Positions 25,274-64,000 of a stretch of 64,000 nucleotides of DNA are shown piece by piece (positions within the stretch are counted from its first letter, which is position 1; the number at the start of each line of letters is the position of its first letter). The stretch is taken from positions 1,696,001 to 1,760,000 of the forward strand of contig OZ242029.1 of the NCBI GenBank assembly GCA_965205015.1, read 5' to 3'. Below the pieces are notes generated by a model. The model was given only the letters and a program-made list of their open reading frames with translations, had not been told where the DNA came from and made no database searches. A program made the translations under genes and the position numbers. The stretch is from Candidatus Poribacteria bacterium. Its GTDB lineage: Bacteria > Poribacteria > WGA-4E > WGA-3G.

Positions 25274-25367
25274 AAAATCCTCCTCAATGCTTAAGCATTA
25301 CTCAGATTTGGGCAATTGTTGTAAGAATTGCAGAATAAGGATTAACCGAATCCATGCGGCCAAAATT

Positions 25368-27168: not shown

Positions 27169-27643
27169 AAAAACTTCCTCTTTTTAATCTCGTGAGACAT
27201 CTAGGTCAGGATTAAATTTTCATCTCGGATAATGTTTTGAATTTTGGTTCTCCTGGTTATATAGTATTCAGACAGTCTTTTAGACGATGCATATTGTTTG
27301 TAAATACGGAATAACACTTTGGTATCATCTTGAATCTCTTTTCTGATTCGTTTAATGTATAAGACGGAATGCCAGTCAGATTCCATCGCGAAAAATGAAG
27401 GAAGCCGCATAAATCCTGATTATGAATATATAATTAGGTAGCAAATTACGTGCCAACACTAAAGAAATCCTAAAATCACTGGATACCTATATCCGGTGAT
27501 TCAGGGGATGCTTTTCAACTCATCCCAAGTTACTTCCAAGTTGTTCATTGTGGTCATCCGTGTTGATGGATCAGTTCTCGGGGGTGGCACTGCTACGACC
27601 CTTATTTTACACGTCTTTCCAAAATGTATATGTTGGTAGGGAC

Positions 27644-47445: not shown

Positions 47446-48855
47446 CTATTCGATCCATTGCATTGTTTCTCGAAGGTGTTCCTTTGCTTTCGCATAATCT
47501 CGGCGAGCTTGATAAAAGACACGTTGTGCCACTGTAAATTGTGCTTGTGTTTCAAACGCATCGTTATAAGTCATATTTTGATATCCGGGTATTTCAACCG
47601 TGACTTCATCGAGCACGCGTTCTATGGTTCGTAGCCTTTGCTCAAAAATTCTCACGCGTGTTTCTTCGATCTCCGCCCGTTCTTTGGCATTCGCCACGGC
47701 ACGGTAAGCACGTCGCACCTCTACACGGATTGACTTTGTTTTTTCGACGTACTCCAACTGAAGTCGTTCAAGTTCTGCGAGTTCTACGGCGCGAAGATTT
47801 TTCGTTTTGTTCCCATCGTATAACGGAATGTTGAAGTTGAAACGCAGTTCCCACCCATCTTGTGTCCGCGGACGGGTTTGAAAAAGACTTGATGCATCTC
47901 GCTCACGGTCGAGTATCACCGGATCGTAGAGTGCCTTTGCGTCCCAGGTCTGGTTCTGTTGGTGTTGTTCCAGCAGCACATGAAGGTCCTTGTAACGGGC
48001 TTCAGCGGAGAGTTCGGGAAATCGATTCCAGATTGTCTCCGCGGCGAGCCGCTCTTGACGCACGATAGTGCCCTGTAAGTCGTGTAAATCCAGGTTGTTT
48101 GCGAGTGCGAGTTCAACTGCCTTCTCTAATGTCATGTCGTCCTCAGAAAGAGGGTGTGAGAGCATAACTTGTGCCAGTGGATCGAGTCCGGTGAGACGAA
48201 TGAGTTCCGCGGTGTCTACATCAAGCCTACGCTGCAGCTCATTGAGAGCAAGCTGCTGCTCGGAGAGTTCAAGTTCCGTGTTGAGGCGACTGAGGAAAGG
48301 GATCCGTTTTTCTGCGTGCCTGATTTGTGTGCCTTTCAGTTTTTTATTGAGTTCTACCTCAATCGCACGCCGTTCCTGAATCTCTTCCTGTGTAAGGATG
48401 ATATTGTTCCAGAGATTACGAACATCGTGAACGCTCTGCTTTTTGGCGCGTTCGTATTCAATCTCTGCCTTGCGGACCTCCTCCTGTGTGGCATCAAGGG
48501 CTTCGGGGATCTCACCGAATTGGGCGAGCAGCATACTTGCTTGTGCGCGGGTGAGGTAGTCTCTTTCATCAATATCGCCATTTTTTTGGCGTTGATATTC
48601 ACCCGTGACGCCCACTTGTGGGAGGTAAATGGCTTTGGACACACGGAGGTTTGCCTTGGCGCGTTCCACCACTTTTTCCGCCTTTTTCACCGTTTCATTG
48701 TTTTGTAGCGCGAGTTCGATTGCACGTGCCGGCTGAAGTACGACCATCCGCTGTGCTGAGACGGTGCTCCCAATGGTAAAGAATAGGCAGATCGCTAATA
48801 CTTTTGTTAACTTCTTATTCACTACTATCTCCATATATTGGTTATCGGAAACCAC
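47446..48855 (-). CDS. TolC-family outer membrane protein
   Basis: Signal peptide; AIELALQNN, YLPQV, LEKAVELALANN, NIPLYDG. Confidence 0.85.
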   Translation of the reverse strand: MVSDNQYMEIVVNKKLTKVLAICLFFTIGSTVSAQRMVVLQPARAIELALQNNETVKKAEKVVERAKANLRVSKAIYLPQVGVTGEYQRQKNGDIDERDYLTRAQASMLLAQFGEIPEALDATQEEVRKAEIEYERAKKQSVHDVRNLWNNIILTQEEIQERRAIEVELNKKLKGTQIRHAEKRIPFLSRLNTELELSEQQLALNELQRRLDVDTAELIRLTGLDPLAQVMLSHPLSEDDMTLEKAVELALANNLDLHDLQGTIVRQERLAAETIWNRFPELSAEARYKDLHVLLEQHQQNQTWDAKALYDPVILDRERDASSLFQTRPRTQDGWELRFNFNIPLYDGNKTKNLRAVELAELERLQLEYVEKTKSIRVEVRRAYRAVANAKERAEIEETRVRIFEQRLRTIERVLDEVTVEIPGYQNMTYNDAFETQAQFTVAQRVFYQARRDYAKAKEHLRETMQWIE

Positions 48856-48861
48856 TATTTC

Positions 48862-51102
48862 TCAACGTCTGCTGATACGGATTGTAACGATAACAATTCC
48901 AATCATCAGGAGTATTAACGCACCGAACAGCAACGTCGTCACCGACATTTGCGTCTGAGACTCCACTTGCACTGTGATTGATCGGTCGCGTGCCTCAAAC
49001 TTACGGTTATCCACGGTGACTTCGGCGTTCAACTTCGCTTGATATTCCCCCACGCCGATGTCCGCAGGTGGACTCAACGTCAGTTGGATCTCTGTCTCCT
49101 CGTTCCGGCTGAGTGAACCGATGACTTCAGGGATAACCGTGTATTTCCAATCCGTGTTGACATCGACGAGCATACGAATGTCCACGAGATCCCGGGTGCC
49201 GATATTCTTGAGCGTCGCTGTCATGTTCACCTCTTCGCCGATTTTAATCGTCTGGAAGGCGTTCGGCACGAATACCTCAATCTCCGGGACACCCTTTGGA
49301 ATTAATTCGAACCGTTCGACACCGCCTTGGATACTCGCAATCCTATCGGCAGGTAAATCCAAGCGATTGTTGACACCCCCGAGCTCATTTGCCTCGGCGT
49401 CATCGAGCACAGCGACGTAGAACTCAAGCGTGCTATCGAGGTAGGACGCATCCAATTCTTCTGGAAGATAGACAATCAACGATAGATTCCGTTTTGACTG
49501 TTCCTGCGTAAATTTTACCTGAGACTGCCGGGATTTCGTCTCTGGGTCTTGGAATTCAAAGTTGATGCGGTTGAGGAGGTTAATGACGCGGAGTTGGAAG
49601 GTGTTCTCCGTTTCTGCCAACCGGTCGAGCGTCAAATCGTAGGTGACGCTGCTTCCCAAGTTCCCTTCCTGCGAAAAGCGGAGCGAACTGACGTTTACCA
49701 CATCCAACGCCGACTCTTTTTGCAGATAGATAAGGCGTGTATCGGGTTCGACAAGTTCGGGGTACTTCAGCGATACCTTCAGACTTTCCACATCTTTCTG
49801 GAGTTGGAAGGTCAAATCCACGGTTTCGTTGTAACCGAGCACCGGGATCTTCTCTTCGTAGGGTTTGACGATGTTCGTGTCATCCGTAACGTCGAGTAAA
49901 GAGACATAGATAGCGCGGATCTCATTTGCTGCTGCAATCTCCTCAGGGGTCGCATCACTCGGCATTGCCTCAGTCGTGGACGTATTTTTCAGTTGGATCG
50001 TCACCATCATTTGGTTGTCAACGCGAAACTTCTTCGCACTCAGGATGGAGATATGGCGAGTATCCTCCTCAAGATGGATTTTATAGGGGATTTCCCGATC
50101 AAGGTAGTTCAGACTCACAGTGAGGTTATCCACATTGCGTCTCAGTTCAAAATCGAGCGTTTTCTCCTGTCCATCTCTCAATGCCGGAATGCGGTGTTCG
50201 TAAGGAAAACCGATGATAGATTCCGTGTCGTCTTTGATAGAGACGTAGACGTTGTTGATTTCCTGTGCGGTGTTGGTGTCTATTTCCTCTGTTTCACCTG
50301 TAATCACCCCGTACGTAAGGACGACTTCCAAACGCCGCCGGTCCCCCTGTTTGTAACGTCTCGCAGAGACCACAGAAATATACGGATCCTCCTGTTTGAG
50401 GTGGATGTTCTTCTGTTCCTCACGTCCCGAGTACTTCAACTCGACGACGACATCCCGCACGTTCTCTTTTATGAGTTCAAACTCCAGTGTGACAGACTCC
50501 CCTTCTTTGAGCGTCTCAATCCGTTGCTCGTAAGGTTCGGTGATAGTTGCCCCGCTTGTGCCATAACCTTCCTGCTCTTTAATCTCGACGAAGATGTCGT
50601 CAATCTGGGCACTAATGATAATTTCTCGTCCCAGCACTTTCGAGCTTTCAACGAGTTTGACGGGAGACGAACTATTCCGCAAGGTAATTGAGAACAGCTC
50701 CCGACCATCGGCGGATTCATAGAGCCTTGTTTTTTCAACGGTGATGTGCCACTCATCTTTCAGGGAATCAAGTTCCGTCTGTTGCAGCGTCAGCTTTGCC
50801 TGTTCATATTCATCGACGGCGCGTTCGTAAGCCTCCTCTGCGATATTCACTTCGGAGACGGTGACGATGTTATTTTCCTCCATCATCATCGCCTTGAGAT
50901 TTTCGAGGTCCACCTGCTTCTTATCCATTAGCTTTTTTGCCAATTCCATCTTCAGGCGATCGATTTCTATCAGGATTTGACGGTTTTGTTCCTCTTTCGT
51001 TTTCGGGCTGTTATCGTCAACAGGTGGAATCTCTTCTGACGCTGCTGCCAATGGAACAGGCAGTGATACCCCTATTGCACTCATAAATATCAGTGCAAAC
51101 AT
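48862..51102 (-). CDS. Large exported protein with repeated Ig-like units, a NEW3-like domain and a C-terminal TM anchor
   Basis: Three repeats of ..EI..IYVS....PYE.RI..L......L.FEL; LKNIGTRDL, PPADIGVGEY; C-terminal TM. Start uncertain (51102 or 51201). Confidence 0.7.
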   Translation of the reverse strand: MFALIFMSAIGVSLPVPLAAASEEIPPVDDNSPKTKEEQNRQILIEIDRLKMELAKKLMDKKQVDLENLKAMMMEENNIVTVSEVNIAEEAYERAVDEYEQAKLTLQQTELDSLKDEWHITVEKTRLYESADGRELFSITLRNSSSPVKLVESSKVLGREIIISAQIDDIFVEIKEQEGYGTSGATITEPYEQRIETLKEGESVTLEFELIKENVRDVVVELKYSGREEQKNIHLKQEDPYISVVSARRYKQGDRRRLEVVLTYGVITGETEEIDTNTAQEINNVYVSIKDDTESIIGFPYEHRIPALRDGQEKTLDFELRRNVDNLTVSLNYLDREIPYKIHLEEDTRHISILSAKKFRVDNQMMVTIQLKNTSTTEAMPSDATPEEIAAANEIRAIYVSLLDVTDDTNIVKPYEEKIPVLGYNETVDLTFQLQKDVESLKVSLKYPELVEPDTRLIYLQKESALDVVNVSSLRFSQEGNLGSSVTYDLTLDRLAETENTFQLRVINLLNRINFEFQDPETKSRQSQVKFTQEQSKRNLSLIVYLPEELDASYLDSTLEFYVAVLDDAEANELGGVNNRLDLPADRIASIQGGVERFELIPKGVPEIEVFVPNAFQTIKIGEEVNMTATLKNIGTRDLVDIRMLVDVNTDWKYTVIPEVIGSLSRNEETEIQLTLSPPADIGVGEYQAKLNAEVTVDNRKFEARDRSITVQVESQTQMSVTTLLFGALILLMIGIVIVTIRISRR

Positions 51103-51198
51103 CAAAGATTGAAAGATTGGAAAGTTGAAAGATTGGAAGGGTGGGGACCCTATCTTTCCATCCTTCCATCTGTCCTTTCCATACTTTTTCCATCCATC
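51103..51198. repeat. GGAAG/TTCCA-rich repetitive imperfect palindrome
   Basis: AAGATTGAAAGATTGGAAAGTTGAAAGATTGGAAGG followed by TTTCCATCCTTCCATC...TTTCCATCCATCC. Confidence 0.6.
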
Positions 51199-51228
51199 CA
51201 TATTTTTACCCTTCTAACCCAGTTCGGT

Positions 51229-51954
51229 TTAAGCTTCTTCAGGTTCGTATCCGGCAACATAGTGCAAATACAATGCCTCAAGATCCTCTTGTTGAATCTC
51301 TTCGCGCGTCAACTCACGTTCAAGGTTGCCTTCCACGAGGATGCCGATCCTGTCGGCGATCTCTTTCGCACGGAAAATGTCGTGCGTTGACATGAAGATG
51401 GCTTTCCCTTCCTCCTTCAACTCGCGGAGCAGATTCAGGAAATCCGCACCCCCCTTCGGATCCAAGCCCGAAGTCGGTTCATCGAGAAGGACGGCTTGTG
51501 CGTTTTTCATAATCGCAATGGCAATACCCAAGCGTTGACGCATCCCTTTGGAGAAGGTCTTAACACGCCGTGTAAAGGCTTCCTCCGGTAGACCGACACG
51601 TCCAAGTGTCGCATCGAGCTCCTCGTTCGATACCTTCTTGCGTCCACCGAGTTTTGCGAAAAAAGACAGATTTTGCCGCGCCGTAAAGTTGCGATAGAGT
51701 TCGACGTTCTCCGAGACGTAAGCGAGATGCTTCTTTGCCTCCAGTGGGAACTTCGGAATCTCAATATCGCCTATCAGTGCGGTGCCGCTTGTGGGTTCGA
51801 TGAAGTTCAGGAGCATAGAGATGGTTGTGCTTTTCCCAGCACCGTTCGCGCCGAGGACAACATAGATTTCGCCATCGTCTACTTTCAGGTTCAACTTGTT
51901 GACGGCTAAAACACTTTCGTTATAGACTTTCGTGAGCTCACGAGTTTCTAACAT
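51229..51954 (-). CDS. ABC transporter ATP-binding protein
   Basis: GANGAGKST, FSKGMRQR, LLDEPTSGLD. Confidence 0.95.
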   Translation of the reverse strand: MLETRELTKVYNESVLAVNKLNLKVDDGEIYVVLGANGAGKSTTISMLLNFIEPTSGTALIGDIEIPKFPLEAKKHLAYVSENVELYRNFTARQNLSFFAKLGGRKKVSNEELDATLGRVGLPEEAFTRRVKTFSKGMRQRLGIAIAIMKNAQAVLLDEPTSGLDPKGGADFLNLLRELKEEGKAIFMSTHDIFRAKEIADRIGILVEGNLERELTREEIQQEDLEALYLHYVAGYEPEEA

Positions 51955-52263
51955 GAGGTTCCTCCTACGGTTGATTTTCTACTATAGTATATGGTATCGG
52001 AAATCTAATTCAAGCAAGACTTGCACCGATTCACTTCTTTAGTTGGTTGCTTGACCTTTAATACGGTTCGTGCCCTTTTATAATTTAATGATACACATTT
52101 GGACTGAAAAGGGTGCATATAGAGAATCGAGCAGTACTCCAACGTAATGCTCGGGTTGAACGATCAACCTATAGTGGATCTTAGCATCCGCCATAATATT
52201 CTGCCCCTAATTGCCCTATTTTTTGAATATAGCCATCAAATCACATTTTGGCTTATGTCATAG

Positions 52264-52458
52264 TGACGCTATTTAGGTGTGAAAAGGTTGCATAATTTGA
52301 AAAAAGTCGTAGAAAATTTGAAAAAATGTAGCTATTCCAGATAGAAGCAGTCTCCTTTTCCTGCAGGAGAGGTTCGTAATTTCGCCTATCTACGATGTTC
52401 AGGTAATTGCGTACTTTGCTGTGATCTAAAGGTTGGAGGTTTTGTTTATTAGAGACCC
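52264..52458 (-). promoter_or_regulatory. ECF-type promoter (TGCAACCTTTT-N13-CGTC) plus a REP-like module
   Basis: Homologous to 60963..61171; a further promoter-like copy lies at about 52090-52118. Confidence 0.5.
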
Positions 52459-52611
52459 TTCATACGGAAAAAGATAGTAAAAACTGCCTGGTTTAACTTA
52501 ACCTACGTGTTTAAGCCGAACTCACGTTAATTACACACCATCTTTTCAGAGAAGTTCCTAAATCGGTATTGCATAGAATGGATTCACACTGTCTGGTGGG
52601 ATTTTATAGGA

Positions 52612-54195
52612 TCACACATCTGAACGGATGAAGACTAAGAAGGCACCTGAAAGAAACACACCAAGCAATAAAACGAGTAGCAGCATATCCACTATCGCTG
52701 CATTGAAGGTATCACTAAAGGTGATCTTATCCTCAAAACTTGGAAGTGCCTGAGGTGAAATCGGCTTTTTAGACATTCCCTCAGGGACTCCGATGATATG
52801 GGGGCTCTCTGTATCAGCGCGATCGGTTTCAGTGATGAAGTTTCGGAACTGTCTGATATGAAGATGCACACCTTCAAGGAATTGCAAGTGCCGATTTAAT
52901 CCGGTACCTGTCATTGATTCAAGAGCATATTGGACGATCGCTGCGGGCGAGAACCGGGTCACCATCCTTGCGCGCTGTACCTGCGCGAGTTGTGCCGTTA
53001 AATGTTCACGGTTCAGCCGTTCCCGAATCTCAACATCTTTGTTGACGAGTTCAGCCCTGATGTGCAATTCCTCCACATCTGCCTTTTGGGATTCCAATTC
53101 TGCTATCGCCAATCTGATTTCTTCCTCGTTCTCCTTCGCCAGTTTTTCCGCCGCTTCAGGCGAGGTTTTCCAAAGTTCCTGAAGTCTATGGAGAAGGCTA
53201 CCCGCTGGTAACTGTGCCTCCTGTTTGTTCTGCATTCGCTCGTCAAAATTTGCGTTAATCTGCTCAAGCGCGCTCCTTTTTGCCATTTCTCGTTGGTGAG
53301 CGGTCTGAACGGGTGGCGTCCATTTCGTGGCAAGCGTGCCGAGGGTAGAAGGCATAAAGACGACGAGTGCTACCCAGACAATCAATAACACGACAAGACT
53401 GATTCGGCTATCGCGCGTGCTGGCGGAGACCATTAACCCTACTGCGATGAAGATACTGGCGTATCCTGAAGCAATTAGCATAATCATTCCCAAACGTCCC
53501 CAGTCCGCCGCCCCGAGTTGTGTCCAACTATCTAAAGAGATCACCGCCAGATTCAACAGTACGGCGAAATAGAATGGGATGAGAATGGTTATCAGGGCGC
53601 CTAAGAACTTTCCGACTAACAACGCCGGGCGGGAAATTGGGTTCGCGAGACATAACCGAAGCGTCCCCCTTTCTCTTTCGCCGGAGAGCGCATCAAACGT
53701 GAACAAAAGTGGGATGAAAGAGAGCAGATAGGTGATGATAAATACCCAGTCTATCTTTGTTGCTTTCGGACGCAGGTCCCGCGCATTCGGGTTGGCAGTA
53801 GGATAGTCCACCGACCAGATGCTTTTTACCTGGCCACCGGGTCCCGCCGTTCTACTCCAAGACCCCCAATTTGTTGTTCCCGATCCCGGCAGAAACGCAT
53901 CGCCCCGGTCTGCAATGAAAGTCAGCGCGGAGGGACGTTTGTAAAGTCTACCGGGTCCTTTTTTCAGGAGCTGATAGAGTTCCGTTTGGGACTGCAATTT
54001 GTTTTGGTCGGTGGTAACTTTCTCAGAATACCGTCGGACCTTGTCTGGGTGGTTCTGAAGATGCACCACAGCGTTAGTTACCATGAGTGCCACCAGAATA
54101 AGGGTAGTTAAGGCAAAGCGGAGACTGTTGAGATGGTCAAAGAATTCTCTTTTAACGATATGTCCGATCATCATATTTCTCCTTTTACACTTCAA
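52612..54195 (-). CDS. ABC-2 type transporter permease
   Basis: FDALSGERERGTLRLCLANPISRPALLVGK; multiple TM segments. Confidence 0.88.
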   Translation of the reverse strand: MKCKRRNMMIGHIVKREFFDHLNSLRFALTTLILVALMVTNAVVHLQNHPDKVRRYSEKVTTDQNKLQSQTELYQLLKKGPGRLYKRPSALTFIADRGDAFLPGSGTTNWGSWSRTAGPGGQVKSIWSVDYPTANPNARDLRPKATKIDWVFIITYLLSFIPLLFTFDALSGERERGTLRLCLANPISRPALLVGKFLGALITILIPFYFAVLLNLAVISLDSWTQLGAADWGRLGMIMLIASGYASIFIAVGLMVSASTRDSRISLVVLLIVWVALVVFMPSTLGTLATKWTPPVQTAHQREMAKRSALEQINANFDERMQNKQEAQLPAGSLLHRLQELWKTSPEAAEKLAKENEEEIRLAIAELESQKADVEELHIRAELVNKDVEIRERLNREHLTAQLAQVQRARMVTRFSPAAIVQYALESMTGTGLNRHLQFLEGVHLHIRQFRNFITETDRADTESPHIIGVPEGMSKKPISPQALPSFEDKITFSDTFNAAIVDMLLLVLLLGVFLSGAFLVFIRSDV

Positions 54196-55660
54196 CTTTG
54201 ATAAAAATCAGAAATGTCACCATAAACAGGATCAGATTCATAAGGAAAAGAAGGGACACATCCGTAAGGGCGCGTTGTGCGTTCTCCGAGACATCCGCCC
54301 GCGCAAAGCGAAACCTTGGCAAATCCCACCAATCCACTGGCCCTTGGTCAGAGGCAAACCACTGTCGACTCGCAAACGCATCTTTGTCGCGGAAATAGTT
54401 AATGAGTGTTTGACGGTATCCTTGCGTGGCGTGGATAAAGTCTAACATACCATTTAGATCCGTGCCTGCCCAGGCGGATGTTGAAAATGCATATAAACTT
54501 GCGGGACTGAACTTCATCAACCGTTTATCCCACGTTGCTTGCCGGATGTCTGTCCGCGCCAAGCGTTGTTCGCGTATCAACGCAGCTTTTTCTGCCAGAC
54601 GGATGTGCGTCGCACCGATGAATGCCTGATACTTTTGGAAATGCGGGACGGACGGCTCCGAATCCGCGTTCACTTTGGTCATATTGAACCCATACCTTCT
54701 GCCACTACGAGCGCTTGACCCTGAATATCCTATGTTAAACCTGGGGGGCTCCCCCGCAAGCGGACTATTTGCTAAGAACCGCTGTTCTTCCCGATCGGCT
54801 TCTTCCCAAATCTGTTCAATCTGTTGACTTGCCGACTGTCTTTCGGCGCGCATATCGCCCACCGGATTGATGGCGAACCGACTCCAGTTCGGATAAACGA
54901 GGACCAAACCGACCCATAAGAACATGCAGAGCATCAAAGATGTAGCCGTGCGGCGGGTTGTCGTGGAAATCAATAGTCCGATGAGGTAGAAAACGGATAA
55001 GTAGACAGTGGTCGTCCAGACTATCCCCCCGATCCGGAGCAAATCCGCTGTGCTGAGCTGTATTGAACTGGCAAGGGAGCACAAAATCAGCACCATCAGC
55101 AGACTCATTAGCACGGGCAGCAGCAAGCATATCATGGCGGCGATATATTTCGCAAATAGAATGGACCCGCGTCGCACTGGATGTGAGATAACCAGACGTA
55201 AGGTACCGCTTTCCCAATCGCCTGCAATCGCATCGTAAGCGAAGAGTAAGGCGAGTAGGCTTAATATAACTTGAAAGATGGACACCAGATCAATCTGTGA
55301 AAAAAGATTGAGATACGGGTTCTCCAGGTTTCGTGCGGAGACACTTGAGAGCACCGGCACTTCCCCGTGATAAATTTCGACGGTCGTTCCGAGTCGCTTA
55401 TCTAATCCTGCACTAAAGAGAGTTAGGGGGTTCGGAGGGCGTTCAACAAAGATTTCTAATCGCGAATAGGTTTCCGCTGCCACCGCTTTCTCACGATGAA
55501 CTTTCTCTTGCTGGCTATAGCTCGCCACTCGGTTTTCGTGCGCATCAATCAGCACAACGGTATTGGCGACGACAAGCAGGAGCGTAATCACGACTGCGGT
55601 AAAGAATCGCGCGCTCATCAGATGCGTGAGCAGTTCTTGGCGTATCAGGGTGCGTAACAT
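54185..55660 (-). CDS. ABC-2 type transporter permease
   Basis: YDAIAGDWESGTLRLVISHPVRRGSILFAK; multiple TM segments. Confidence 0.88.
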   Translation of the reverse strand: MLRTLIRQELLTHLMSARFFTAVVITLLLVVANTVVLIDAHENRVASYSQQEKVHREKAVAAETYSRLEIFVERPPNPLTLFSAGLDKRLGTTVEIYHGEVPVLSSVSARNLENPYLNLFSQIDLVSIFQVILSLLALLFAYDAIAGDWESGTLRLVISHPVRRGSILFAKYIAAMICLLLPVLMSLLMVLILCSLASSIQLSTADLLRIGGIVWTTTVYLSVFYLIGLLISTTTRRTATSLMLCMFLWVGLVLVYPNWSRFAINPVGDMRAERQSASQQIEQIWEEADREEQRFLANSPLAGEPPRFNIGYSGSSARSGRRYGFNMTKVNADSEPSVPHFQKYQAFIGATHIRLAEKAALIREQRLARTDIRQATWDKRLMKFSPASLYAFSTSAWAGTDLNGMLDFIHATQGYRQTLINYFRDKDAFASRQWFASDQGPVDWWDLPRFRFARADVSENAQRALTDVSLLFLMNLILFMVTFLIFIKVEV

Positions 55661-55708: not shown

Positions 55709-57382
55709 TCACCGGATGGAGATATGTGCTCGAAAAGCGTTGATACTTTCCTGCTCATCAACCCAACCCCCAGTCGCTCTCAATTGAAAAACCTGTCCTT
55801 TGTCAAATTGATATATGATTGTTCCTGTTTCACCGGGTTGGATCCCCCATACATGTGCGAGCGCGCCTTTAGATATTCCTTTTGTCGAGAATTCGCTATT
55901 ACCATCGAAGAGATCAAACGAACCTATAAGGGCTGCCCTCCCGACTTGAATATCAATGGTGAGCACGCCACCGTTTTCAAATGCTGTGGCATCAATTTCT
56001 ACAACGGTGTGATCTTGAGAGCCTGCCTCAGCGGTGCGGAAAGTGTCTAATATCTCTATTGAAGGTTGCACAGGATTGAGGGAAATATTGCGACTGCTTG
56101 ATAAAGAGACCCGATCTTTCTCACCCAATCCGGGACGTTTTCCTGTTAAGGCTTCTACAAGGAACAACTGATAGTGTTCTGCTTTCTTGTGCCACTTGTG
56201 CGGGGAGAGTTCATTGACGGCTTGCCTGCCCATGAGTTCAAGTTCGGACGAGATAACCAAACAATCTGTAGGTGAATGTCTCTTCCACGCCCGAACGATT
56301 GTTTGGAGCAAGGAAGACATTTCGTCAATACCTTTTGCATCGCGCAAACGTCTTATATCGGTGTTAAGTACCCATGTGTTGACAAAATTTTCATTCAAGA
56401 ATTTGATGTTCCCATCATCAGAGAGAGCGACTGCCCTCAAATTTTTGCCGCTCGCGCCACAGGCTTCGTCATCAAGCGGACCATTGATTGAAATAACATG
56501 AATGGGCTTCTGTTGTGTCTTTGCTATTTCCAACACTTCGTCTACCGATACCCAATTGATTTGTTGTGATTTGTAGAAACGTAGTATCAGGACACGCTCG
56601 GCTTCTTCTACAGTTATTGCTTCGGAAAATTGCGTGTCTTGAATTATATCTTCTGAACCGGTACGGAGTTCGATTTGTGGACAAAAGCCGGTATCCGCCC
56701 CAAAAGAGGGACCGGCACCATGGTATCGGTTGACATCGAAGTTGAGTGTTCCCTCAGGAACGTACATCTGGAAGAAGGCGATTTTCTTTTCTACTCGATC
56801 GATAACGAGATTCCCAGTAAATTGTGAGGGTGTGAACCAGCCGTTCGCTAACCTGAACTCCGCATGAATACGGAATACGATGTCGGCAAATTCAGCATTG
56901 TAAGCGCGCAAGCACGCCCACATTCCGCGTGAATCTCCGTGATTGATGTGCATATCCAGATTGGGATTGGGGTGAAGTTGTCTCAACAGCTCCAGTACCC
57001 CGTTTTGTTCAATCTGCCAGACTTCGCCGACAGAAACACTGTTTCCTCGGTTTGGAGGATTTTCGCGAAAAAGTCTCTTCAATCCCGGCAAGAACGGTTT
57101 TTCTTTTCCCTTCTGCAGGCGGGCTTCAGTCGGGAGAAACGCCTGAAACACTGAAGTAGGATGGTGCTTTTCAGGCTCAGCGACTCGCAGATGTGCCAAT
57201 GTATCCCACGTCACATGGAAGTTGTCTCGGGTGTACTCGATTGGGGCAATGAAGCCTTTAACCAACACTTTGGCGTTGTTGTCAAGCGTGAGAACAATTC
57301 TGTTAGAAGTAGATACTTCATCCGCGAACCCATGTTGCAAAGACAAGATAAAAATCAGGCAACCGATACCGAATGTTTTCAT
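55709..57382 (-). CDS. Selenoprotein N-like exported protein, non-Sec paralog (C-G-A-S-G)
   Basis: Signal peptide; FQAFLP, GMWACLRAY, FRIHAEF, WFTPSQFTG, GPLDDEACGASGKNLRAVALS, LNENFVNTW match SELENON motifs; C-terminal shared beta domain. Confidence 0.8.
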   Translation of the reverse strand: MKTFGIGCLIFILSLQHGFADEVSTSNRIVLTLDNNAKVLVKGFIAPIEYTRDNFHVTWDTLAHLRVAEPEKHHPTSVFQAFLPTEARLQKGKEKPFLPGLKRLFRENPPNRGNSVSVGEVWQIEQNGVLELLRQLHPNPNLDMHINHGDSRGMWACLRAYNAEFADIVFRIHAEFRLANGWFTPSQFTGNLVIDRVEKKIAFFQMYVPEGTLNFDVNRYHGAGPSFGADTGFCPQIELRTGSEDIIQDTQFSEAITVEEAERVLILRFYKSQQINWVSVDEVLEIAKTQQKPIHVISINGPLDDEACGASGKNLRAVALSDDGNIKFLNENFVNTWVLNTDIRRLRDAKGIDEMSSLLQTIVRAWKRHSPTDCLVISSELELMGRQAVNELSPHKWHKKAEHYQLFLVEALTGKRPGLGEKDRVSLSSSRNISLNPVQPSIEILDTFRTAEAGSQDHTVVEIDATAFENGGVLTIDIQVGRAALIGSFDLFDGNSEFSTKGISKGALAHVWGIQPGETGTIIYQFDKGQVFQLRATGGWVDEQESINAFRAHISIR

Positions 57383-57503: not shown

Positions 57504-58826
57504 TTACCGAATGGAAATTCGTGCGTGAAAAGCATTGACGCTCCCTTTCTCACTAAACCAATCGCCGGTAGCCCCTAATTGAAAGACTTGGGCTTGATCG
57601 AACCGATAAGCGATTATTCCTGTTCCACCGGGCGGAATTCCCCATTCATGCGCGAGGGCTTTGTTAGGGAAGCCTTCAGTCGTAAGTTCACTGTCTCCCC
57701 TAAATAGATCGAATGAACCCGAGGCTTTGCCACTGCCGACCCGGATATCAATGGTTAACATGCCGCCAGCTTCAAACGCCGTGGCATCAATTTTGACAAC
57801 AGTATAATCCTGATGCCCTCTTTCGGGTGTCCGAAAAAAGTCTAATATTTCTGTTTGAATTTGCTGTGCTTTTTCTATTTGTGCTTGTGTCTCCTGCGTT
57901 TGCGGGCCTGTTACCCGCAGGATGTCTGCTTGCGGATTGGATCTGCTATTCTTTCCCGACATGTCCATCTTTCCCAGTTGTGTTCTCACAGCAGGTTTGG
58001 CTTTAATGATGGGTTCCAGCGTTGCCTCTACAATGTCAACCTTTATAGCAGGGATTGTCTCTAAACTGTAGGGGTGCTGGAAACGGGATAGGTATTCATT
58101 GCTTACGCCAAGCATGAGTGTCGCCAAAATAGCGATTGACGCCGCTATCGCCCATGGCACTACAGGTTTGCCATTTGTAGGAGGAACAGGTTTGATGCGG
58201 TTGGCTTCTCGTATAATATTCTCAGTTAGGTTGGCTGGCAATTGTACACTACTGAGTACTTCACTAACCAAAAGTTCTTCGCCTTGTGTCTGCAAACGCT
58301 TTCGCGCACGGCTAAGCCTACTTTTAATTGTGTTCGCCGATACACCCAAAAATTTGCTAATATCCTTCACTTTCATTTCGCCAAGGTAGTGGAGCGTCAC
58401 GACCGTACGTTCGCTCTCCGGCAGCCTTTGCAGAAGTCTTTTGACGATTTCATGTCGTTGTTCAGTCGTTTCCACGTCGAGCTGCTCCGATACATGATGG
58501 GTATAAGAGGCTTCTTCTATTTCTTCCACAGGTGTGTCCTCCAGCGATTGCATCATATATCTGTTCCTTTGAATCCAATTAATACAGAGTCGATCTACAA
58601 TGACATAAAGCCATCCAGCGAACTGATTGGGATCTTTTAGTGTTGAGAGTTTTTTGTGTACTTGAAGGAAAGCATCTTGCGTAATTTCTTCAGCGAGATG
58701 AAAGTCCCCAAGCTTGCGCCACGCCAGCGCGTGAACGCTCTTCTGATGTTTTCGGACCAATGCACCGAATGCCTCTTCATCCCCTGACAAAATTTTATGA
58801 ATCAGTTGAACATCGTTTTCTTCCAT
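57504..58826 (-). CDS. ECF sigma factor with a TM segment and an extracytoplasmic C-terminal domain
   Basis: Regions 2 and 4 (AEEITQDAF, FAGWLY, ISKFLGVSANTIKSRLSRAR), TM PWAIAASIAILATLMLG, and a ~115-aa C-terminal domain shared with both SelN-like proteins. Confidence 0.9.
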   Translation of the reverse strand: MEENDVQLIHKILSGDEEAFGALVRKHQKSVHALAWRKLGDFHLAEEITQDAFLQVHKKLSTLKDPNQFAGWLYVIVDRLCINWIQRNRYMMQSLEDTPVEEIEEASYTHHVSEQLDVETTEQRHEIVKRLLQRLPESERTVVTLHYLGEMKVKDISKFLGVSANTIKSRLSRARKRLQTQGEELLVSEVLSSVQLPANLTENIIREANRIKPVPPTNGKPVVPWAIAASIAILATLMLGVSNEYLSRFQHPYSLETIPAIKVDIVEATLEPIIKAKPAVRTQLGKMDMSGKNSRSNPQADILRVTGPQTQETQAQIEKAQQIQTEILDFFRTPERGHQDYTVVKIDATAFEAGGMLTIDIRVGSGKASGSFDLFRGDSELTTEGFPNKALAHEWGIPPGGTGIIAYRFDQAQVFQLGATGDWFSEKGSVNAFHARISIR

Positions 58827-58931: not shown

Positions 58932-60836
58932 TCACTTGTTATCATAAATGAACCACACACCCTCCACTTTTCGCATCTTAACAGATATCTCCGGCGGCTG
59001 CGCCATCGGCATTTTTAATCGAAAGTGGAATTCATCACCCACATATTCGCTGCTCAACACCTCCATCTGACTTAACATTTGACGCACCTGAGGACGCATA
59101 TCCGCTGGCACATCCTCAAAATCATTTTCAAATGTTTCTCTGGCATCTCCTGTAAGCATCGAGCGTAGTGTCTCTGAATCGAGATTCTTAAATGCTTCCA
59201 CGAAAGCGTTCATCGTATCTTCCGCAGATTGCTCCGGGCGCGCTGATGACGCTTTTCTCGGCTCTGGTTTCCGATTCGGTTCGACAGAGATTTTTGCCCA
59301 AAAAGCGTTGACCAACCCTTTCTCACTGGACCAATTGCCGGTTACCCCCAACTTAAAGGGCTGCCCTCGGTCAAAAGGATGAACGATGTGTCCGCTCATG
59401 CCCGGCTCAATTTCCCACGCGGAAACCAGCGCATTATCAGGTATACCTGTCGTGGGAAGTTCCGTGTCTCCGGCGAACAGATCGAACGAACCCGGCACCT
59501 CGCCGTTGCCCACCCAGGTATCAATGGTAAGTGTACCGCCGTCTTCAAACAGTGTGGTGTCAATCTCAACGGTTGTGTAATCCTGATTGCCATGACCGGG
59601 CGCGCGAAAAATGTTCAGGATCTCCATTGAGGTTCGCTGAGCGTTGAGGGCGACGTGTCGGCTACTACCCAATCCGGGACGTTTCCCTTCTAATGATTCC
59701 ACGAGAAACCGTTGGTAAGCCTCGTCTATGTAGCGCATCGCATTGAATAGGTCATTGACCGGTTGACGTCCCATCAGTTCCAGATCGGGCGATATCACCA
59801 AACAATCTACCGGAGAATACCGCTTCCACCCACTAATAATTGTTCGTGCCAAGGGCTGCATTCCGTCAATTCCCTTTGCTTCACGTAATCTTTTCATATC
59901 GGTGTTCAGCACCCAGGTGTTGACAAACTTTTCGTTGAGCGATTCGATGATTCGGTCATTGGAGAGGACAACTGCCCTCAAGGTTTTTCCACTCCCTCAG
60001 CACGCCTCGTCGGTGAGGGGTCCATTGATCGAAACCACATGAATCGGCTTTCGCAGCGATCTTGCTATCTCTAACGCTTTGTCCATCGCTACCCATTTGA
60101 TTTGTTCCGACTTATAGAAACGGTGTATCAGTCTACGTTCCGCTTCTTCTTGGGTGATGGCTTGGGTGAATTGCGTGTCTGACGTGATAGCCTGTGTACC
60201 AGCAAGGAGTGATATTTGAGGACAAAAGCCGGCATCCGTACCGAAGTAGCGACTATTCTCGTGTTTCCGGTTCACATCGAAGTTGAGGGTGCCTTCAGGG
60301 ACGTACATCTCAAAGAAGGCGACTTTCGCCTGCGGACGGTCAATAACCAAACGACCGGCAAACTGGGACGGGGTGAACCAACCGTCCGCTAAGGCAAATT
60401 CTGCATGGATGCGAAACACAATTTCGGCAAAGAGATCATTGTAAGCGCGAAGCGTTGCCCATAACCCTGAGGAATCCACAGGACTGTGCATCTCCACGTA
60501 TGGGTTGGGGTGAAGTTGCTTCAGCAATTCCAGAATGCCCTCCGGTTTAACGTGCCACAGTTCGCCCACGGAGACAGGCTGATGCGGAAGAAATGCTTGA
60601 AAAACCGACGCTGCATATCGCTTTTCTGGTTCAGCGACTTTCAAGTTCGCTAATGTGTCCCAATTCACATGAAAGTTGTCGACTGTATACGCAATCGGAG
60701 CGATGAAGCCTTCGACGGAGACTTCTGACGTGCTGTCAAGGGTAAGTGTGATTTTGTTAGGTGTGGTGTTCTCATCAGCGTGAAGTTGTCCACTCATCAT
60801 CACCAGAATGAGAAATCCAATCGTTAGTGTTTTCAT
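58932..60836 (-). CDS. Selenoprotein N-like exported protein with an in-frame UGA (predicted selenocysteine), 634 aa by readthrough
   Basis: ORFs 59997..60836 and 58932..59981 are in the same frame, separated only by TGA GGG AGT GGA AAA ACC. Readthrough gives GPLTDEAC-U-GSGKTLRAVVLS, co-linear with the uninterrupted paralog 55709 and with the SELENON [10 protein letters not shown] motif. Confidence 0.85.
59960..59996 (-). promoter_or_regulatory. Putative bacterial SECIS element
   Basis: Immediately 3' of the UGA: lower pairing UGGA/UCCA, upper stem GAGGGC/GUCCUC, apical loop AGUU with 23 nt between UGA and loop. Confidence 0.7.
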
Positions 60837-60962
60837 TTTCTATCTCCTTGGTCATAATTAACATTCTATACCAACAACACCTATATAGAAAGTTGTTGCT
60901 TGCGTAAATTTTATAGTGAAGCCCACAATTATTTAAACTTTGTCTCACCCTTTTATAATTAA

Positions 60963-61359: not shown

Positions 61360-62073
61360 CTACTGTCGCTTCAGACGAATTTTGCCGGCAGCGGAGGACA
61401 ATTTCAGTAGCGGTCCACCCCCGTTAAGTGTTCCCTTTAATCTATTTTCTATGGTGTCACCTTGAGGTTGGATAGGGAAGTCGCTTGAGATTTTCCCTTG
61501 GGTTTGCGCGTCTATGTCAACGGCAATATCGGGGTGGAGCGTGACATCTATCGCTCCATCCATGGATGTGTGCAAGGTCCACGGATGTTGCGGTTGTACT
61601 GTCATTTCCGCACGGATATCTCCACCAGAGGCAGTTTTGAGCGTGACATTATACGAACGCGGGACTGTCACGTGAACTTCAACCGTCAACCACTTCAATC
61701 CGTCTTGCCAATATTCCCGCCCCTGCTTGAAGTTTCCTTCAACTCGGACATCGGATTCGGTATCTGAATCGTTGTGTTCAATTGTGAACTCAAAATCCTC
61801 AAGCAGGTCATCAATCCATTTACCAAAATTGGGTTTCAATATTCTAAATTTTGAGCTCCAGTCTTTTCTGGCGGTAATATCTACATGATGCTGATCTGTG
61901 GTTTCTATAGTGATCGTACCGTACTCTATGTCAACTGTTAGATGCCCGATAGAATTAACGGGGTACCCTGTCTGTATGACGTGCGAAATTTCCTTAATGC
62001 GTATGATGTAGAGAAGGACAACCACTCCCAGACACAAGATGAGAAAAATGACGAACCGCTTAGATTTTGTCAT
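61360..62073 (-). CDS. DUF4097/adhesin-like beta-strand protein
   Basis: N-terminal TM; VTVPRSYNVTLKTASGGDI, GTLNGGGPLLKLSSAAGKIRL. Confidence 0.7.
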   Translation of the reverse strand: MTKSKRFVIFLILCLGVVVLLYIIRIKEISHVIQTGYPVNSIGHLTVDIEYGTITIETTDQHHVDITARKDWSSKFRILKPNFGKWIDDLLEDFEFTIEHNDSDTESDVRVEGNFKQGREYWQDGLKWLTVEVHVTVPRSYNVTLKTASGGDIRAEMTVQPQHPWTLHTSMDGAIDVTLHPDIAVDIDAQTQGKISSDFPIQPQGDTIENRLKGTLNGGGPLLKLSSAAGKIRLKRQ

Positions 62074-62099: not shown

Positions 62100-62987
62100 T
62101 TATTTGTCCCCCGCATCAGCAGATTTGACTTCATACGTCTTTAATTCAAGGGTTTTGACGGTGGTTGAAACCTTAAATAGAGGATGTGGAGGTGGAGGAA
62201 GCGTTTTCAGAAGGGTATCCTCCCTTTTTTGGTGAAACTTGACGATGCCGACCTCGGGTGCTACCCACAGCGTCGTAACGGATTCGCCGGGCGGATTCAT
62301 GGTCTGGTCAGGAGGAGATGTTTCCACTTTTGTCTCTGTCTGGTATTCAATCTTCAAACAGTTTTCAAAAGTACCGGCGGGTGTCTCAACATCTTCCGTG
62401 CCTAACACTTTGCCTGTTTCAACAATAGTGATTTCAAATATGATTTCTTCAGGAGCTTGTGGTGGATCAGATCGCATCGTAATTTTGGCTTTTATCTGTG
62501 TTGCCTCCCACGCTTCGTCGAAGGTGATAGACGTTGGAAGCACATAGAAAGAGTCTTCCGTCTCTGCTTCGATCTCGTAGAGAAGATCAAATCCCTCCAT
62601 CATCAGCCGTAAAATCGTCCGGAGGGTTCCCATCTCTTTGGTAAGGCGCGCCTTGATCGCTTTCTGTGCCGCATCCCCGACCAAGAACGTAACCTTCTCT
62701 TCACCAACCTTGTAGAAATTCGGATGGATGTGATAGTCATAATTTATCCAATCCTCCAAGGTCGGTTCATAGCTGAAGCTGCTATACGTCTCACCCTCAA
62801 TTTCTCTTTTCTCTACAGCCGACCGTGTTAATTCATTTCCATCCTGATCCTCGTAAACCCAGTAACTTCCAGGTGTCTCTGGAAAATATTGGATAGTTTC
62901 CGATGCATTGCCCATCAGTGCTGCACTGAGTCCACAGACAAGTAAAAGTGTAAAAAAGGTGCGAAATCTTTTCAACATTATAATCAC
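62100..62987 (-). CDS. Hypothetical exported protein
   Basis: Signal peptide; YFP...GSYWVY, VETPAGTFENCLKI, WVAPEVGIVK. Confidence 0.75.
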   Translation of the reverse strand: MIIMLKRFRTFFTLLLVCGLSAALMGNASETIQYFPETPGSYWVYEDQDGNELTRSAVEKREIEGETYSSFSYEPTLEDWINYDYHIHPNFYKVGEEKVTFLVGDAAQKAIKARLTKEMGTLRTILRLMMEGFDLLYEIEAETEDSFYVLPTSITFDEAWEATQIKAKITMRSDPPQAPEEIIFEITIVETGKVLGTEDVETPAGTFENCLKIEYQTETKVETSPPDQTMNPPGESVTTLWVAPEVGIVKFHQKREDTLLKTLPPPPHPLFKVSTTVKTLELKTYEVKSADAGDK

Positions 62988-63081: not shown

Positions 63082-64000
63082 TCACACCTCCGAACGTATA
63101 AAGATAAGAAATGCCCCCGAAAAAAATACGCCGAGGAGTAGAACGAGTAGCAGCAGATCCAAAGTCGCGGTATGGAGCGTATCGCTGAAGGCGATCTTAT
63201 CCTCAAATTTCGGAATCGCCTCACTTGAGAACGGCTTCTCGGACATGCCTTCAGGGATGCCGATGAGATGGCGACTTTGTGTGTCTGCTCTATCGGTTTC
63301 TACGATGAATTGTCGAAATTGTCTTGTGTAATCGTGCACGTGTTCTAAGTATTGCAGATGGCGGTTGAAACCGGTGCCAGCCATTGATTCAAGGGCGTAT
63401 TGGACAATCGCCGCCGGTGAAAACCGGGTCACCCCCCTTGCGCGTTGGACCTGTGCGATTTGTGCGTCTAAATACTCGCGGTTAAAGCGTTCTCGGGTTT
63501 CTACATCTCTGTTGACGAGTTCCGCCTTGAGCACCAGTTCTTCGTCACCTTCGACTTCCCACGCTGCCATGAGTTTTTCTGCTTCGGCTCTGGCAGCTTC
63601 AGGGGACGTTTCAAAAAGCTTCTGAAGTTCATCTAAGTTTAAAAGGTTAGGGGTCTTTTTTTCCTTGATTGCGTTCAATCGGTCATTATAGTCTGTGTCA
63701 ATCTGCTTAAGGGCAGCGTCTCTTGCGGCATGAAATTGATCAATCGTTTGGAGCGGTGGCATCCATTTTGTGGAGAGGGTACCGAGGGTCGACGGCATAA
63801 AAACCACGGTGGCTACCCAAATCAGTAGCAGAATAACCAGACTCACCCGAGGTTCTCGCGTGCCAGCGGAGATCATCAGCCCCAATCCAACAAAGATACC
63901 GGCGTAACTGAAAGCAATTAACAGAATCAACCCCAAACGTCCCCAATCGGCTGCGCTCAGTTGTGTCCAACTGTCGACAGAGATCACCGTCAAATTCAGC
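63082..64000 (-). CDS. ABC-2 type permease, 3' part (gene begins beyond the window)
   Basis: Paralog of 52612 (VFMPSTLGTL, TRFSPAAIVQYALESM). Confidence 0.85.
   Translation of the reverse strand, partial: LNLTVISVDSWTQLSAADWGRLGLILLIAFSYAGIFVGLGLMISAGTREPRVSLVILLLIWVATVVFMPSTLGTLSTKWMPPLQTIDQFHAARDAALKQIDTDYNDRLNAIKEKKTPNLLNLDELQKLFETSPEAARAEAEKLMAAWEVEGDEELVLKAELVNRDVETRERFNREYLDAQIAQVQRARGVTRFSPAAIVQYALESMAGTGFNRHLQYLEHVHDYTRQFRQFIVETDRADTQSRHLIGIPEGMSEKPFSSEAIPKFEDKIAFSDTLHTATLDLLLLVLLLGVFFSGAFLIFIRSEV

Follow-up and report, generated by a model that had tools for sequence, protein, structure and literature searches.

The window, a 64,000-nucleotide stretch of a Candidatus Poribacteria contig, carries one minus-strand gene (60836..58932) whose product is homologous to selenoprotein N; it has 634 codons, a stop and one in-frame TGA (59997-59999). 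The ORF list presents this gene as two table-11 ORFs in one frame, 59997..60836 (279 aa, starting at ATG) and 58932..59981 (349 aa, starting at TTG). The read-through translation joins them by that single TGA, as an earlier note on this DNA had claimed. The note gave no strand; the plus strand of 58932-60836 gives stops only, and that reading was rejected. With the TGA read as U, we obtained a protein of 634 residues whose U280 (59997-59999) lies in the peptide ...INGPLTDEAC-U-GSGKTLRAVVLSNDRIIESLNEKFVNTW, in the context ...DEAC-U-GSGK..., and whose N-terminus agrees with those of homologues. A Shine-Dalgarno-like AAGGAG (60844..60849, minus strand) stands 7 nt upstream of the ATG (60834-60836), and the true stop codon at 58932..58934 (minus strand) is likewise a TGA. 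Scans for promoters and terminators performed no better than on shuffled sequences.

All features of the gene lie on the minus strand. Residues 1-20 (60777..60836) resemble a signal peptide, MKTLTIGFLILVMMSGQLHA followed by DEN, with a hydrophobic core whose Kyte-Doolittle means are 1.6-2.7, from which we infer that the protein is exported. According to BLASTP, a profile search and the alignment, residues of about 34-385 (59682..60737) form a core matching the ER-luminal part of animal SELENON. The two motifs named in the earlier note fall within it, FRIHAEF at residues 141-147 (60396-60416) and WFTPSQFAG at residues 153-161 (60354-60380), and so does the redox dyad (59997..60002) of Cys279 (TGC, 60000-60002) and Sec280 (TGA, 59997-59999), which is seen in the translation and in homologous segments. 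Just 3' of the TGA lies a bacterial SECIS-type hairpin, GAGGGC / AGUU / GUCCUC (59964..59979, loop 59970-59973), at +20..+35 counted from the U of UGA. A C-terminal domain without a Pfam match (residues 404-519, 59280..59627) also forms the extracytoplasmic end of a neighbouring ECF sigma fusion. The last domain (residues 538-634, 58935..59225) is present only in some family members, among them P0024, P0035, P0037, P0049 and P0061, and its sole match in NCBIfam is sub-threshold (Rv0361_Cterm, E 0.074).

The core is homologous to the luminal catalytic part of SELENON/SEPN1. A profile built from bacterial proteins alone and run against 1.84 billion proteins retrieved animal proteins from wombat (P0171, 5.6e-33) and Nematostella (P0157, 1.1e-34), and BLASTP with the window's protein matched P0157 over residues 34-363 (E 3e-34) and P0171 over residues 101-308 (E 7e-31). 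Relatives of P0171, Homo sapiens P0312 among them, bear the name Selenoprotein N. Pairwise alignments with animal proteins show 31% identity across 239 aa in one case and 26% across 396 aa in another. The alignment of bacterial and animal proteins runs end to end and covers the luminal core together with the C-U motif, where A-C-U-G (residues 278-281) is matched by DDQSC(U)G on the animal side. Codon 280 corresponds to the Sec of SCUG in SELENON, which bears out the proposal that the gene encodes a bacterial SelN homologue with Sec at the homologous column. The animal motifs given in the earlier note are present in the database as well: FRIHAEF and WFSPAQFTG both occur in human P0312, and the motif region is present in Callorhinchus P0265, whose gene model omits the U. 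Blocks common to both sides are FRIHAEF, WF(T/S)P(S/A)QF, KP/L-hH, GSG(K/R)TLR and LNExF(V/I)(N/S)TW, and the vicinal Cys-Sec at the same column reads [A/S]-C-U-G in bacteria and S-C-U-G in animals. The SCUG motif and a reductase role are reported for SELENON (PMC12839072, PMC10298544). At the position of human Arg466 the window's protein has a Lys; R466Q is reported to be pathogenic (PMC12839072).

Several features separate the bacterial protein from its animal counterpart. Whereas SELENON is a type II, ER-anchored glycoprotein, the window's protein has a short signal-peptide-like N-terminus, its gene has a Shine-Dalgarno site, and both the type II membrane anchor and the EF-hand (Pfam) are absent; EF-hand matches occur in 5 of the 18 rows of the family alignment, presumably within its seven animal rows. 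The animal gene uses a SECIS in the 3'UTR, while the window's gene has its hairpin within the ORF, and an Rfam scan of the window at gathering thresholds returned two tmRNAs only and no eukaryotic SECIS_1. Bacterial SelN also differs from animal SELENON in having two extra C-terminal domains, numerous gene copies within a genome and an association with ECF sigma factors. The SelN core matched no family in Pfam or NCBIfam, nor any PDB entry by sequence or by profile; Thioredoxin_7 of Pfam gave one weak match, in 1 of 18 family members. In the literature, the Sec region of SelN is predicted to be thioredoxin-like, and a review compares the SelN motif with the GCUG of thioredoxin reductase (PMC12839072), which also has adjacent Cys and Sec followed by Gly. 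That motif sits at the C-terminal tail of a flavoenzyme without sequence homology to SelN, in contrast to the internal motif of bacterial SelN.

Directly downstream on the same strand is a gene (57504..58826) that by Pfam and sequence encodes regions 2 and 4 of an ECF sigma factor, followed by a hydrophobic segment and the shared C-terminal domain; between P0002 and the paralogue P0005, this domain is 64% identical over 119 aa (E 5e-45). Beyond it lies a paralogue of 557 aa (55709..57382, minus strand), 59% identical to the window's protein over the searched region and 61% in the alignment. The earlier note had described an adjacent paralogue that is continuous across the site. Its continuity was confirmed; it is not directly adjacent, because the sigma fusion gene sits between, and the residue at the column is Gly (GGC, 56456-56458) rather than Cys. 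The hairpin is retained in this paralogue.

The link to the sigma factor extends beyond the window. A similar sigma gene adjoins SelN-like genes in 45 of 76 loci, and sigma-SelN domain fusions exist in other bacteria (P0072, P0154). Alternatively, in a protein that does contain Sec, the SelN-like domain may serve chiefly to sense redox state within envelope ECF sigma signalling rather than as an enzyme that turns over. The shared C-terminal domain and the persistence of paralogues lacking the redox residue fit such a role, and SELENON, too, has been characterised as a sensor with a coupled redox activity (PMC7474598, PMC10298544). On the other hand, 31 of the 76 loci have no sigma gene within their 3-kb flanks. 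Furthermore, Cys-Sec is kept in most copies, and Sec is costly and usually tied to catalysis. We consider a mainly sensory role unlikely and favour an oxidoreductase.

Genes of this kind form a large and mostly Sec-containing family, with a match in 116 of the 150 genomes sampled from the phylum to which the Poribacteria MAGs belong, and occur in other bacteria as well. Five Poribacteria genomes yielded 50 TGA-bearing matches, 7-15 in each, and the profile recovered 817 proteins at E<=0.001 from a library that keeps one representative per 50%-identity cluster. Most of the profile matches are only 33-45% identical to the Poribacteria loci, and some lie on high-GC contigs. The gene was found in Poribacteria MAGs and in sponge-metagenome runs, and among the sequencing runs listed as containing it there was no RNA run.

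Whether SelN arose in bacteria or passed between host and symbiont had been put forward as testable, should the host be a sponge symbiont, and our tree addresses this in part. Its 10 eukaryotic rows, out of 96, form one clade (100/100), while the placement of this clade among the bacteria has a bootstrap of 9%: the best maximum-likelihood tree sets it beside the clade with the window's protein, and holding the two together was not rejected (p-AU 0.72). A quick tree that had put the eukaryotic clade away from the window's clade was dropped, as the constrained search found a better tree. Capture of SELENON from a eukaryotic host by sponge symbionts, giving the bacterial genes as an 'eukaryote-like protein', would agree with the occurrence of the gene in Poribacteria MAGs and sponge metagenomes and with this best tree and its p-AU value. 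Against such a capture stand the low bootstrap of that very placement, the 817 divergent proteins with their high-GC contigs, the few eukaryotic rows forming a single clade, and the bacterial genes themselves, which have no EF-hand, no introns and a SECIS of bacterial type. We judge capture from the host to be quite improbable.

TGA is an ordinary stop codon in the window, where it ends 11 of the 39 long ORFs, one of these being the Sec codon. A genome-wide reassignment was ruled out, since TGA ends the 10 other long ORFs as well as the gene itself. Across 76 Poribacteria loci, the Sec column is TGA in 133 of the 137 homologous segments and a Gly codon in the other 4, which argues that the TGA is not there by chance. 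TGA is likewise present in 56/56 segments from 57 metagenome loci, and in both sets conserved residues flank it on both sides. Among database proteins covering the N-domain, 70 of 101 stop exactly at the Cys preceding the column. Four bacterial proteins (P0068, P0072, P0085 and P0122) are continuous Cys-Cys forms with Cys at the column, so that both kinds of homologue for which the earlier note had suggested a search, with TGA or with Cys, exist. Continuous relatives with neither Sec nor Cys have Gly (13), Trp (2; P0016 and P0018) or Thr (1), which fits a non-catalytic role, at least for those paralogues. In every case the halves on either side of the TGA neighbour each other and share one reading frame. 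A sequencing error had also been considered; contigs from three separate studies span the site, with no difference at 59997-59999 among those listed.

The hairpin at +20..+35 agrees with the SECIS-like element that had been proposed, and it is conserved across homologues. Pairing is kept in 97.6% of 714 cells (119 distinct sequences), compared to 46.9-82.4% when the pairing pattern is slid. Codon usage within it is nearly frozen: AGG accounts for 108 of 119 Arg codons (91%) vs 6.9% elsewhere in the same genes, GCA for 111/112 Ala codons (background 35.7%) and CTC for 116/118 Leu codons (background 19.6%). Covariation within the Poribacteria set is modest, with double changes in 2 of 6 pairs, the sequences being related, and by folding energy the hairpin does not stand out (z -0.19). 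Other bacterial subfamilies have a hairpin at the same place with another sequence, GAGRGCG-GGUC-CGCUCUC or CCCUC-CGUGC-GAGGG. Apical loops of the Poribacteria type read AGGU or AGUU; GGUC occurs in class B and also in a pair of divergent Poribacteria copies. Bacterial SECIS elements, such as that of E. coli fdhF, are in-ORF hairpins that follow the UGA closely and carry G/U in their apical loop, and the SelN hairpin is alike in these respects. Presumably it binds SelB. To check for a common SECIS shape, we took the selD hairpin of the same genomes as positive control; its spacing and sequence are different, so that it gave no support.

The machinery for selenocysteine was counted in five genomes related to that of the window. 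tRNA-Sec (about 78 bits, cut-off 47), the selB gene adjoining it and selD, which has an in-frame TGA of its own, are present in 5/5 of these genomes, and selA in 4/5. As to relatedness, sigma genes at six loci share 91.5-93.5% identity with the one in the window; two of these loci, L001 and L002, lie in the five genomes.

We also weighed other ways of reading the UGA. It might be recoded by near-cognate read-through as Trp, Cys or Gly, or act as a regulated stop that mostly yields the 279-residue fragment. Some variants at the column are indeed one base away from TGA (GGA for Gly, and the Trp of P0016 and P0018). Recoding of this kind is nevertheless very improbable, given that Sec and Cys alternate right behind a Cys that never varies, in agreement with SCUG in SELENON, that the hairpin is under selection at the RNA level, and that relatives possess the full Sec machinery. 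Finally, a real stop, marking a pseudogene, an assembly error or a pair of distinct genes of 279 aa and 349 aa, is barely credible, even though gene callers split the gene there, so that its C-terminal ORF is the 349-aa database protein P0019, as the earlier note foresaw for annotation, and many relatives are known as halves only: it is opposed by the fixed TGA with its conserved flanks, the adjacent in-frame halves, the continuous Cys forms, the spanning contigs and the frozen synonymous codons 3' of the TGA. Decoding of the UGA as selenocysteine by the bacterial route is thus strongly supported, albeit indirectly. Taken as a whole, we find it highly probable that the gene encodes a Sec-containing, exported bacterial SelN homologue, read by means of a SECIS hairpin, in a family that has expanded in Poribacteria.

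In the mechanism we propose, SelB with Sec-tRNA(Sec) would be recruited by the in-frame hairpin at +20..+35, and the UGA would be decoded as Sec. The protein, exported by its signal peptide, would then act outside the cytoplasm as a thiol/selenol oxidoreductase, judging from its sequence, and the vicinal Cys279-Sec280 would cycle through a selenenylsulfide. Its most likely substrate would be oxidised cysteines of envelope proteins, which it would reduce; the analogy is with SELENON, reported to reduce SERCA2. More speculatively, the C-terminal domain held in common with the adjoining ECF sigma fusion may wire the SelN homologue to envelope signalling.

The position of the hairpin may bear on the history of the eukaryotic gene. 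The mRNA of SELENON contains an element, the SRE, which is likewise a hairpin directly 3' of the Sec UGA and is said to 'resemble a bacterial SECIS'. The apex of the SRE lies at +25..+31 in eukaryote-type contigs; for the loops of the bacterial hairpins the corresponding positions are +26..+29 in the Poribacteria type and +27..+30 in class B. As these positions coincide, one set of homologous codons, R-(A/E)-(G/T)-x-L, underlies both the SRE and the bacterial hairpins. The SRE is longer than the bacterial hairpin of 6-7 bp, having an outer stem of +9..+19 with +37..+47 that is 95.5% paired with 4 compensatory pairs in 8 sequences, and it works together with a 3'UTR SECIS; SECIS_1 was found in the eukaryote-type contig L130. 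One possible, still tentative account is that SELENON descends from a bacterial periplasmic Cys-Sec oxidoreductase and that the SRE is the remnant of an ancestral bacterial SECIS, kept over the same codons after the 3'UTR SECIS took over. In the same tentative account, the expansion of the family in Poribacteria to 7-15 selenoprotein paralogues per genome, coupled to ECF sigma factors, would represent a system for redox sensing and repair of the envelope in the sponge host.

SelN has been treated as a eukaryotic, mainly animal, ER selenoprotein, and SELENON is a human disease gene (SEPN1-related myopathies). The earlier note could not say whether bacterial homologues had been reported; in the literature searched we found no paper on bacterial SelN, no Pfam or NCBIfam model and no solved structure. 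A 2026 inventory of prokaryotic selenoproteins counts 119 families/subfamilies (PMC13188914). The families it gives as shared with eukaryotes are SelD, GPX, deiodinase-like, SELENOW-like and MsrA; 'selenoprotein N', SELENON or SelN does not occur as a family in its text or table, although supplements of the selenoproteome papers it cites, and Table S9 of PMC4807772, might list the family under another name. Like most families catalogued there, bacterial SelN is predicted to be a redox selenoprotein, has homologues with Cys and carries its SECIS inside the ORF; it differs in being absent from the list and in having no NCBIfam model. SELENON is described as lacking a solved structure (PMC7474598), and our sequence and profile searches of PDB found no relative.

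These observations add to the prokaryotic selenoproteins a family absent from the 2026 inventory, whose genes annotation pipelines split systematically, and show that selenoproteins have undergone an unusually large expansion in sponge symbionts. The chemistry of SELENON is poorly defined, and hundreds of bacterial homologues, soluble, free of EF-hand and membrane anchor and in some cases natural Cys forms, offer tractable models for its structure, mechanism and substrates. With them, the origin of SelN and the reason why its mRNA carries an SRE that resembles a bacterial SECIS become testable.

Translation of the minus strand with TGA read as selenocysteine (U) joins two ORFs, an N-terminal one starting at ATG (59997..60836 (-), 279 aa) and a C-terminal one starting at TTG in the same frame (58932..59981 (-), 349 aa), into one 634-residue protein with U280 at 59997-59999. 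The peptide at the Sec site reads ...INGPLTDEAC-U-GSGKTLRAVVLSNDRIIESLNEKFVNTW; the two in-frame ORFs, the single TGA and the peptide described in the earlier note were thus borne out by this translation. AAGGAG lies 7 nt ahead of the ATG, and residues 1-20 resemble a signal peptide, from which we infer export. The true stop of the gene is TGA as well, and the 39 long ORFs of the window end in TGA (11, one being the Sec codon), TAA (20) or TAG (8); a genome-wide reassignment of TGA is therefore ruled out.

Pfam and NCBIfam searches gave no model covering the core of this protein. From 1.84 billion representatives, a profile built on 18 bacterial sequences retrieved 817 proteins at E<=0.001, including P0171 from wombat (5.6e-33) and P0157 from Nematostella (1.1e-34). 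Relatives of P0171 across vertebrates, the Homo sapiens protein P0312 among them, are named Selenoprotein N, SELN protein or EF-hand domain-containing protein. The window protein itself is 31% identical to P0171 over 239 residues (E 7e-31) and 26% identical to P0157 over 396 residues (E 3e-34). The joint bacterial/animal alignment runs from just past the animal EF-hand to the C-terminus, with FRIHAEF, WFxPxQF, the C-U column, GSG(K/R)TLR and LNExFxxTW as common blocks. The homology to SelN proposed earlier is upheld by these scores and by the aligned C-U column, and the assignment of the window gene to the SelN family, in bacteria, holds. SelN, for which no 3D structure is reported, has been described as a reductase that senses calcium and acts on SERCA2, with SCUG as redox site and a thioredoxin domain predicted around it (PMC12839072, PMC7474598, PMC10298544). 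Unlike animal SelN, the bacterial protein has neither an EF-hand nor a membrane anchor.

A pattern scan of species-representative genomes gave 245 relatives, and 76 loci were kept, titled Candidatus or uncultured Poribacteria (73) or "uncultured bacterium" (3). Probed with the 100 residues surrounding the Sec site, they gave 137 homologous segments; the Sec column is TGA in 133 and Gly in the other four (GGA in three, GGC in one), and Cys directly precedes it in 136, the exception being L009, in which Ser precedes the Gly. In a second scan, with a seed from a different, more distant subfamily, metagenome contigs contributed 57 loci with 56 segments, every one of which has TGA at this column. 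In the protein libraries, 70 of the 101 proteins spanning the N-terminal domain stop exactly at the Cys before the Sec column, many others start a few residues past that Cys, and four uninterrupted bacterial relatives (P0068, P0072, P0085 and P0122) have Cys-Cys at the site. The check for homologues with TGA or Cys at this column was thus positive for both. The Sec site is spanned by contigs assembled in runs from three separate studies and, among the differences listed, none falls at the TGA. Readings of the interrupted frame as a pseudogene, as a pair of genes or as an error of sequencing were set aside on the TGA conservation, the truncation pattern, the Cys forms and these bridging contigs. 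In three sponge-associated runs, summed contig depth at 59956-60019 was 4-5x that of neighbouring bins, a rise which is no copy-number measure and fits many paralogues with a common near-identical Sec/hairpin segment.

The SECIS-like hairpin claimed in the earlier note is present at 59979-59964 (-), +20..+35 from the UGA (GAGGGC-AGUU-GUCCUC). Its folding energy on its own is unremarkable. Across 119 distinct sequences, pairing holds in 97.6% of 714 cells, against 46.9-82.4% with the 3' arm slid, and in two of the six pairs both partners have changed. The fixed codon choice is stronger evidence than pairing. The Arg codon is AGG in 108/119, compared to 6.9% of Arg codons elsewhere in the same genes, the Ala codon is GCA in 111/112 (35.7% elsewhere in these genes), the Leu codon is CTC in 116/118 (vs 19.6%), and the codon after the Ala has T in third position in 118/118 Gly/Val codons (vs about 30%). 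Third positions immediately past the hairpin are mixed. Two other bacterial SelN-like subfamilies have a hairpin of other sequence at the same place: CCCUC-CGUGC-GAGGG, loop +21..+25, in class A (11 distinct sequences, plus L109), and GAGRGCG-GGUC-CGCUCUC, loop +27..+30, in class B (14 distinct sequences).

Sel genes were searched in five genomes with related loci (G001-G005), standing in for the window's genome; in two of them (with L001 and L002) the sigma genes are 92-93.5% identical to the window's. All five have tRNA-Sec (about 78 bits, cut-off 47), a full-length selB adjoining it and a selD with one in-frame TGA, and four have selA, the miss being G005, which is titled a WGA assembly and may be incomplete. 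The presence of Sec machinery is thereby established in five related genomes only. Their selD (loci L082-L085) is itself a selenoprotein gene (...VKCAG-U-ASKLAPGE...). As a control, the selD hairpin of the same genomes differs from the SelN-like one, so one SECIS shape common to both genes cannot be claimed. The reading of the window's SelN-like UGA as Sec-decoded via a bacterial-type element is strongly supported.

Among the matches listed, 50 with an in-frame TGA were found in five Poribacteria genomes (8, 15, 11, 7 and 9 per genome), and 116 of 150 sampled genomes of the same phylum have a match at E<=1e-15. Only 8 of the best matches listed for this sample have no internal stop, all of the full-length 557-aa class; the remaining ones have one in-frame TGA each, one of them with further stops. 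The window's SelN-like paralogue (55709-57382 (-), 557 aa; 59% identity across the region searched) carries at the Sec column a Gly codon, GGC (56456-56458), not Cys. It is uninterrupted, as previously stated, but not adjacent, as an ECF sigma fusion gene lies between. Within the 557-aa orthologue group, Gly replaces Sec in the window copy, L006, L009, L015 and L016; the hairpin is kept in all five Gly variants, and Sec loss therefore looks recent. In other relatives the residue at this column is Trp or Thr, and the Gly, Trp and Thr forms may be redox-dead paralogues. Judged by eye, the last ~250 residues of the window protein (58932-59700 (-)) closely resemble the C-terminal ends of P0035 and P0049, whose SelN cores form a divergent subfamily (...FVNVFVLLGDL...) that includes the syntenic gene in L001, L003, L006, L007 and L014. 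The window gene may be mosaic, drawn from two paralogues.

Downstream of the window's selenoprotein gene lies a gene that fuses an ECF sigma factor, via a hydrophobic stretch, to a 119-residue domain; this domain shares 64% identity with the C-terminal one in the SelN-like paralogue. A similar sigma gene occurs inside the 3-kb flanks of 45 of the 76 loci, and two database proteins, P0072 (Cys form) and P0154 (ending at the Cys), are direct ECF sigma/SelN-like fusions. Around the cluster (47446-55660, 63082-63993 (-)) are genes for ABC-2 permeases with DUF3526, for an ABC ATPase and for an outer-membrane efflux protein. Closest on the upstream side are a DUF3108-like protein (62100-62987) and, at 61360-62073, an unassigned ORF. 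The sigma and transporter context suggests a role in envelope redox sensing. Other fusions are seen in P0179, where leucine-rich repeats are joined to a SelN-like domain that stops at the Cys preceding the Sec column, and in P0137, where the fusion partner is an N-terminal region of 900 residues with weak TPR and squalene-cyclase-like matches. Elsewhere in the window, ~1.93 kb is duplicated in tandem (23437-27170 (-)). Each copy holds a tmRNA gene, at 23502-23836 and at 25432-25766 (-), which scores 150 bits and has the same tag peptide in both, and an upstream ORF (470 / 457 aa); identity is 99% in the tmRNA part and 74-89% in the ORF part. Two tmRNA genes per bacterial genome are unusual.

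Since most bacterial representatives share no more than 33-45% identity with the Poribacteria loci and some contigs with SelN-like genes have 64-72% G+C, the family is much wider than Poribacteria. Our unrooted N-domain tree (96 rows, 194 columns; sponges and algae absent) left out sequences >90% identical to a kept row and the misaligned P0314. It contains one eukaryotic clade of 10 rows (eight named animals, P0182 with EF-hand, and P0187) on a long stem. A quick tree placing this clade away from the window's was rejected, a constrained search having given a better tree (p-AU 0.72). In the careful tree it is sister to a 24-row clade with the window protein, with a bootstrap of only 9%. The phylogeny proposed earlier is thus firm for a single eukaryotic clade (100/100) but not for its placement. 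Algal SELENON and a sponge SelN have been reported (PMC7539508, PMC3473315).

Searches of the available full-text literature found SelN described neither in Poribacteria nor in other bacteria, though an earlier mention elsewhere is possible; the text and the first part of Table 1 of a 2026 inventory of 119 prokaryotic selenoprotein families do not name SelN, and NCBIfam release 20 has no model for bacterial SelN. The bacterial proteins have a different architecture and a large lineage-specific expansion; what is said of their fold, activity and export, of a sigma link and of the direction of any transfer is inferred.

The metagenome scan also gave eukaryote-type SelN contigs (8 distinct sequences), some showing exon-sized pieces 50-70% identical to animal SelN and three intronless and full length. 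One of the latter, L130, has a Rfam SECIS_1 match 3' of the ORF (40.6 bits, cut-off 35). These contigs carry a long hairpin from about 6 nt past the UGA, with its apex at +25..+31; in the outer stem, +9..+19 with +37..+47, 95.5% of 88 cells pair and compensatory changes occur in 4 of 11 pairs. The SELENON selenocysteine redefinition element (SRE), a hairpin 3' of the Sec UGA, has been likened to a bacterial SECIS element in a 2026 review (PMC12936836). As the peptide alignment has no indel in this stretch, the bacterial loops (+26..+29, +27..+30) and the SRE apex lie over the same homologous codons, a coincidence partly forced because both elements must be near the UGA. We hypothesize that bacterial SelN genes with an in-ORF SECIS could represent a concrete origin for the SRE.
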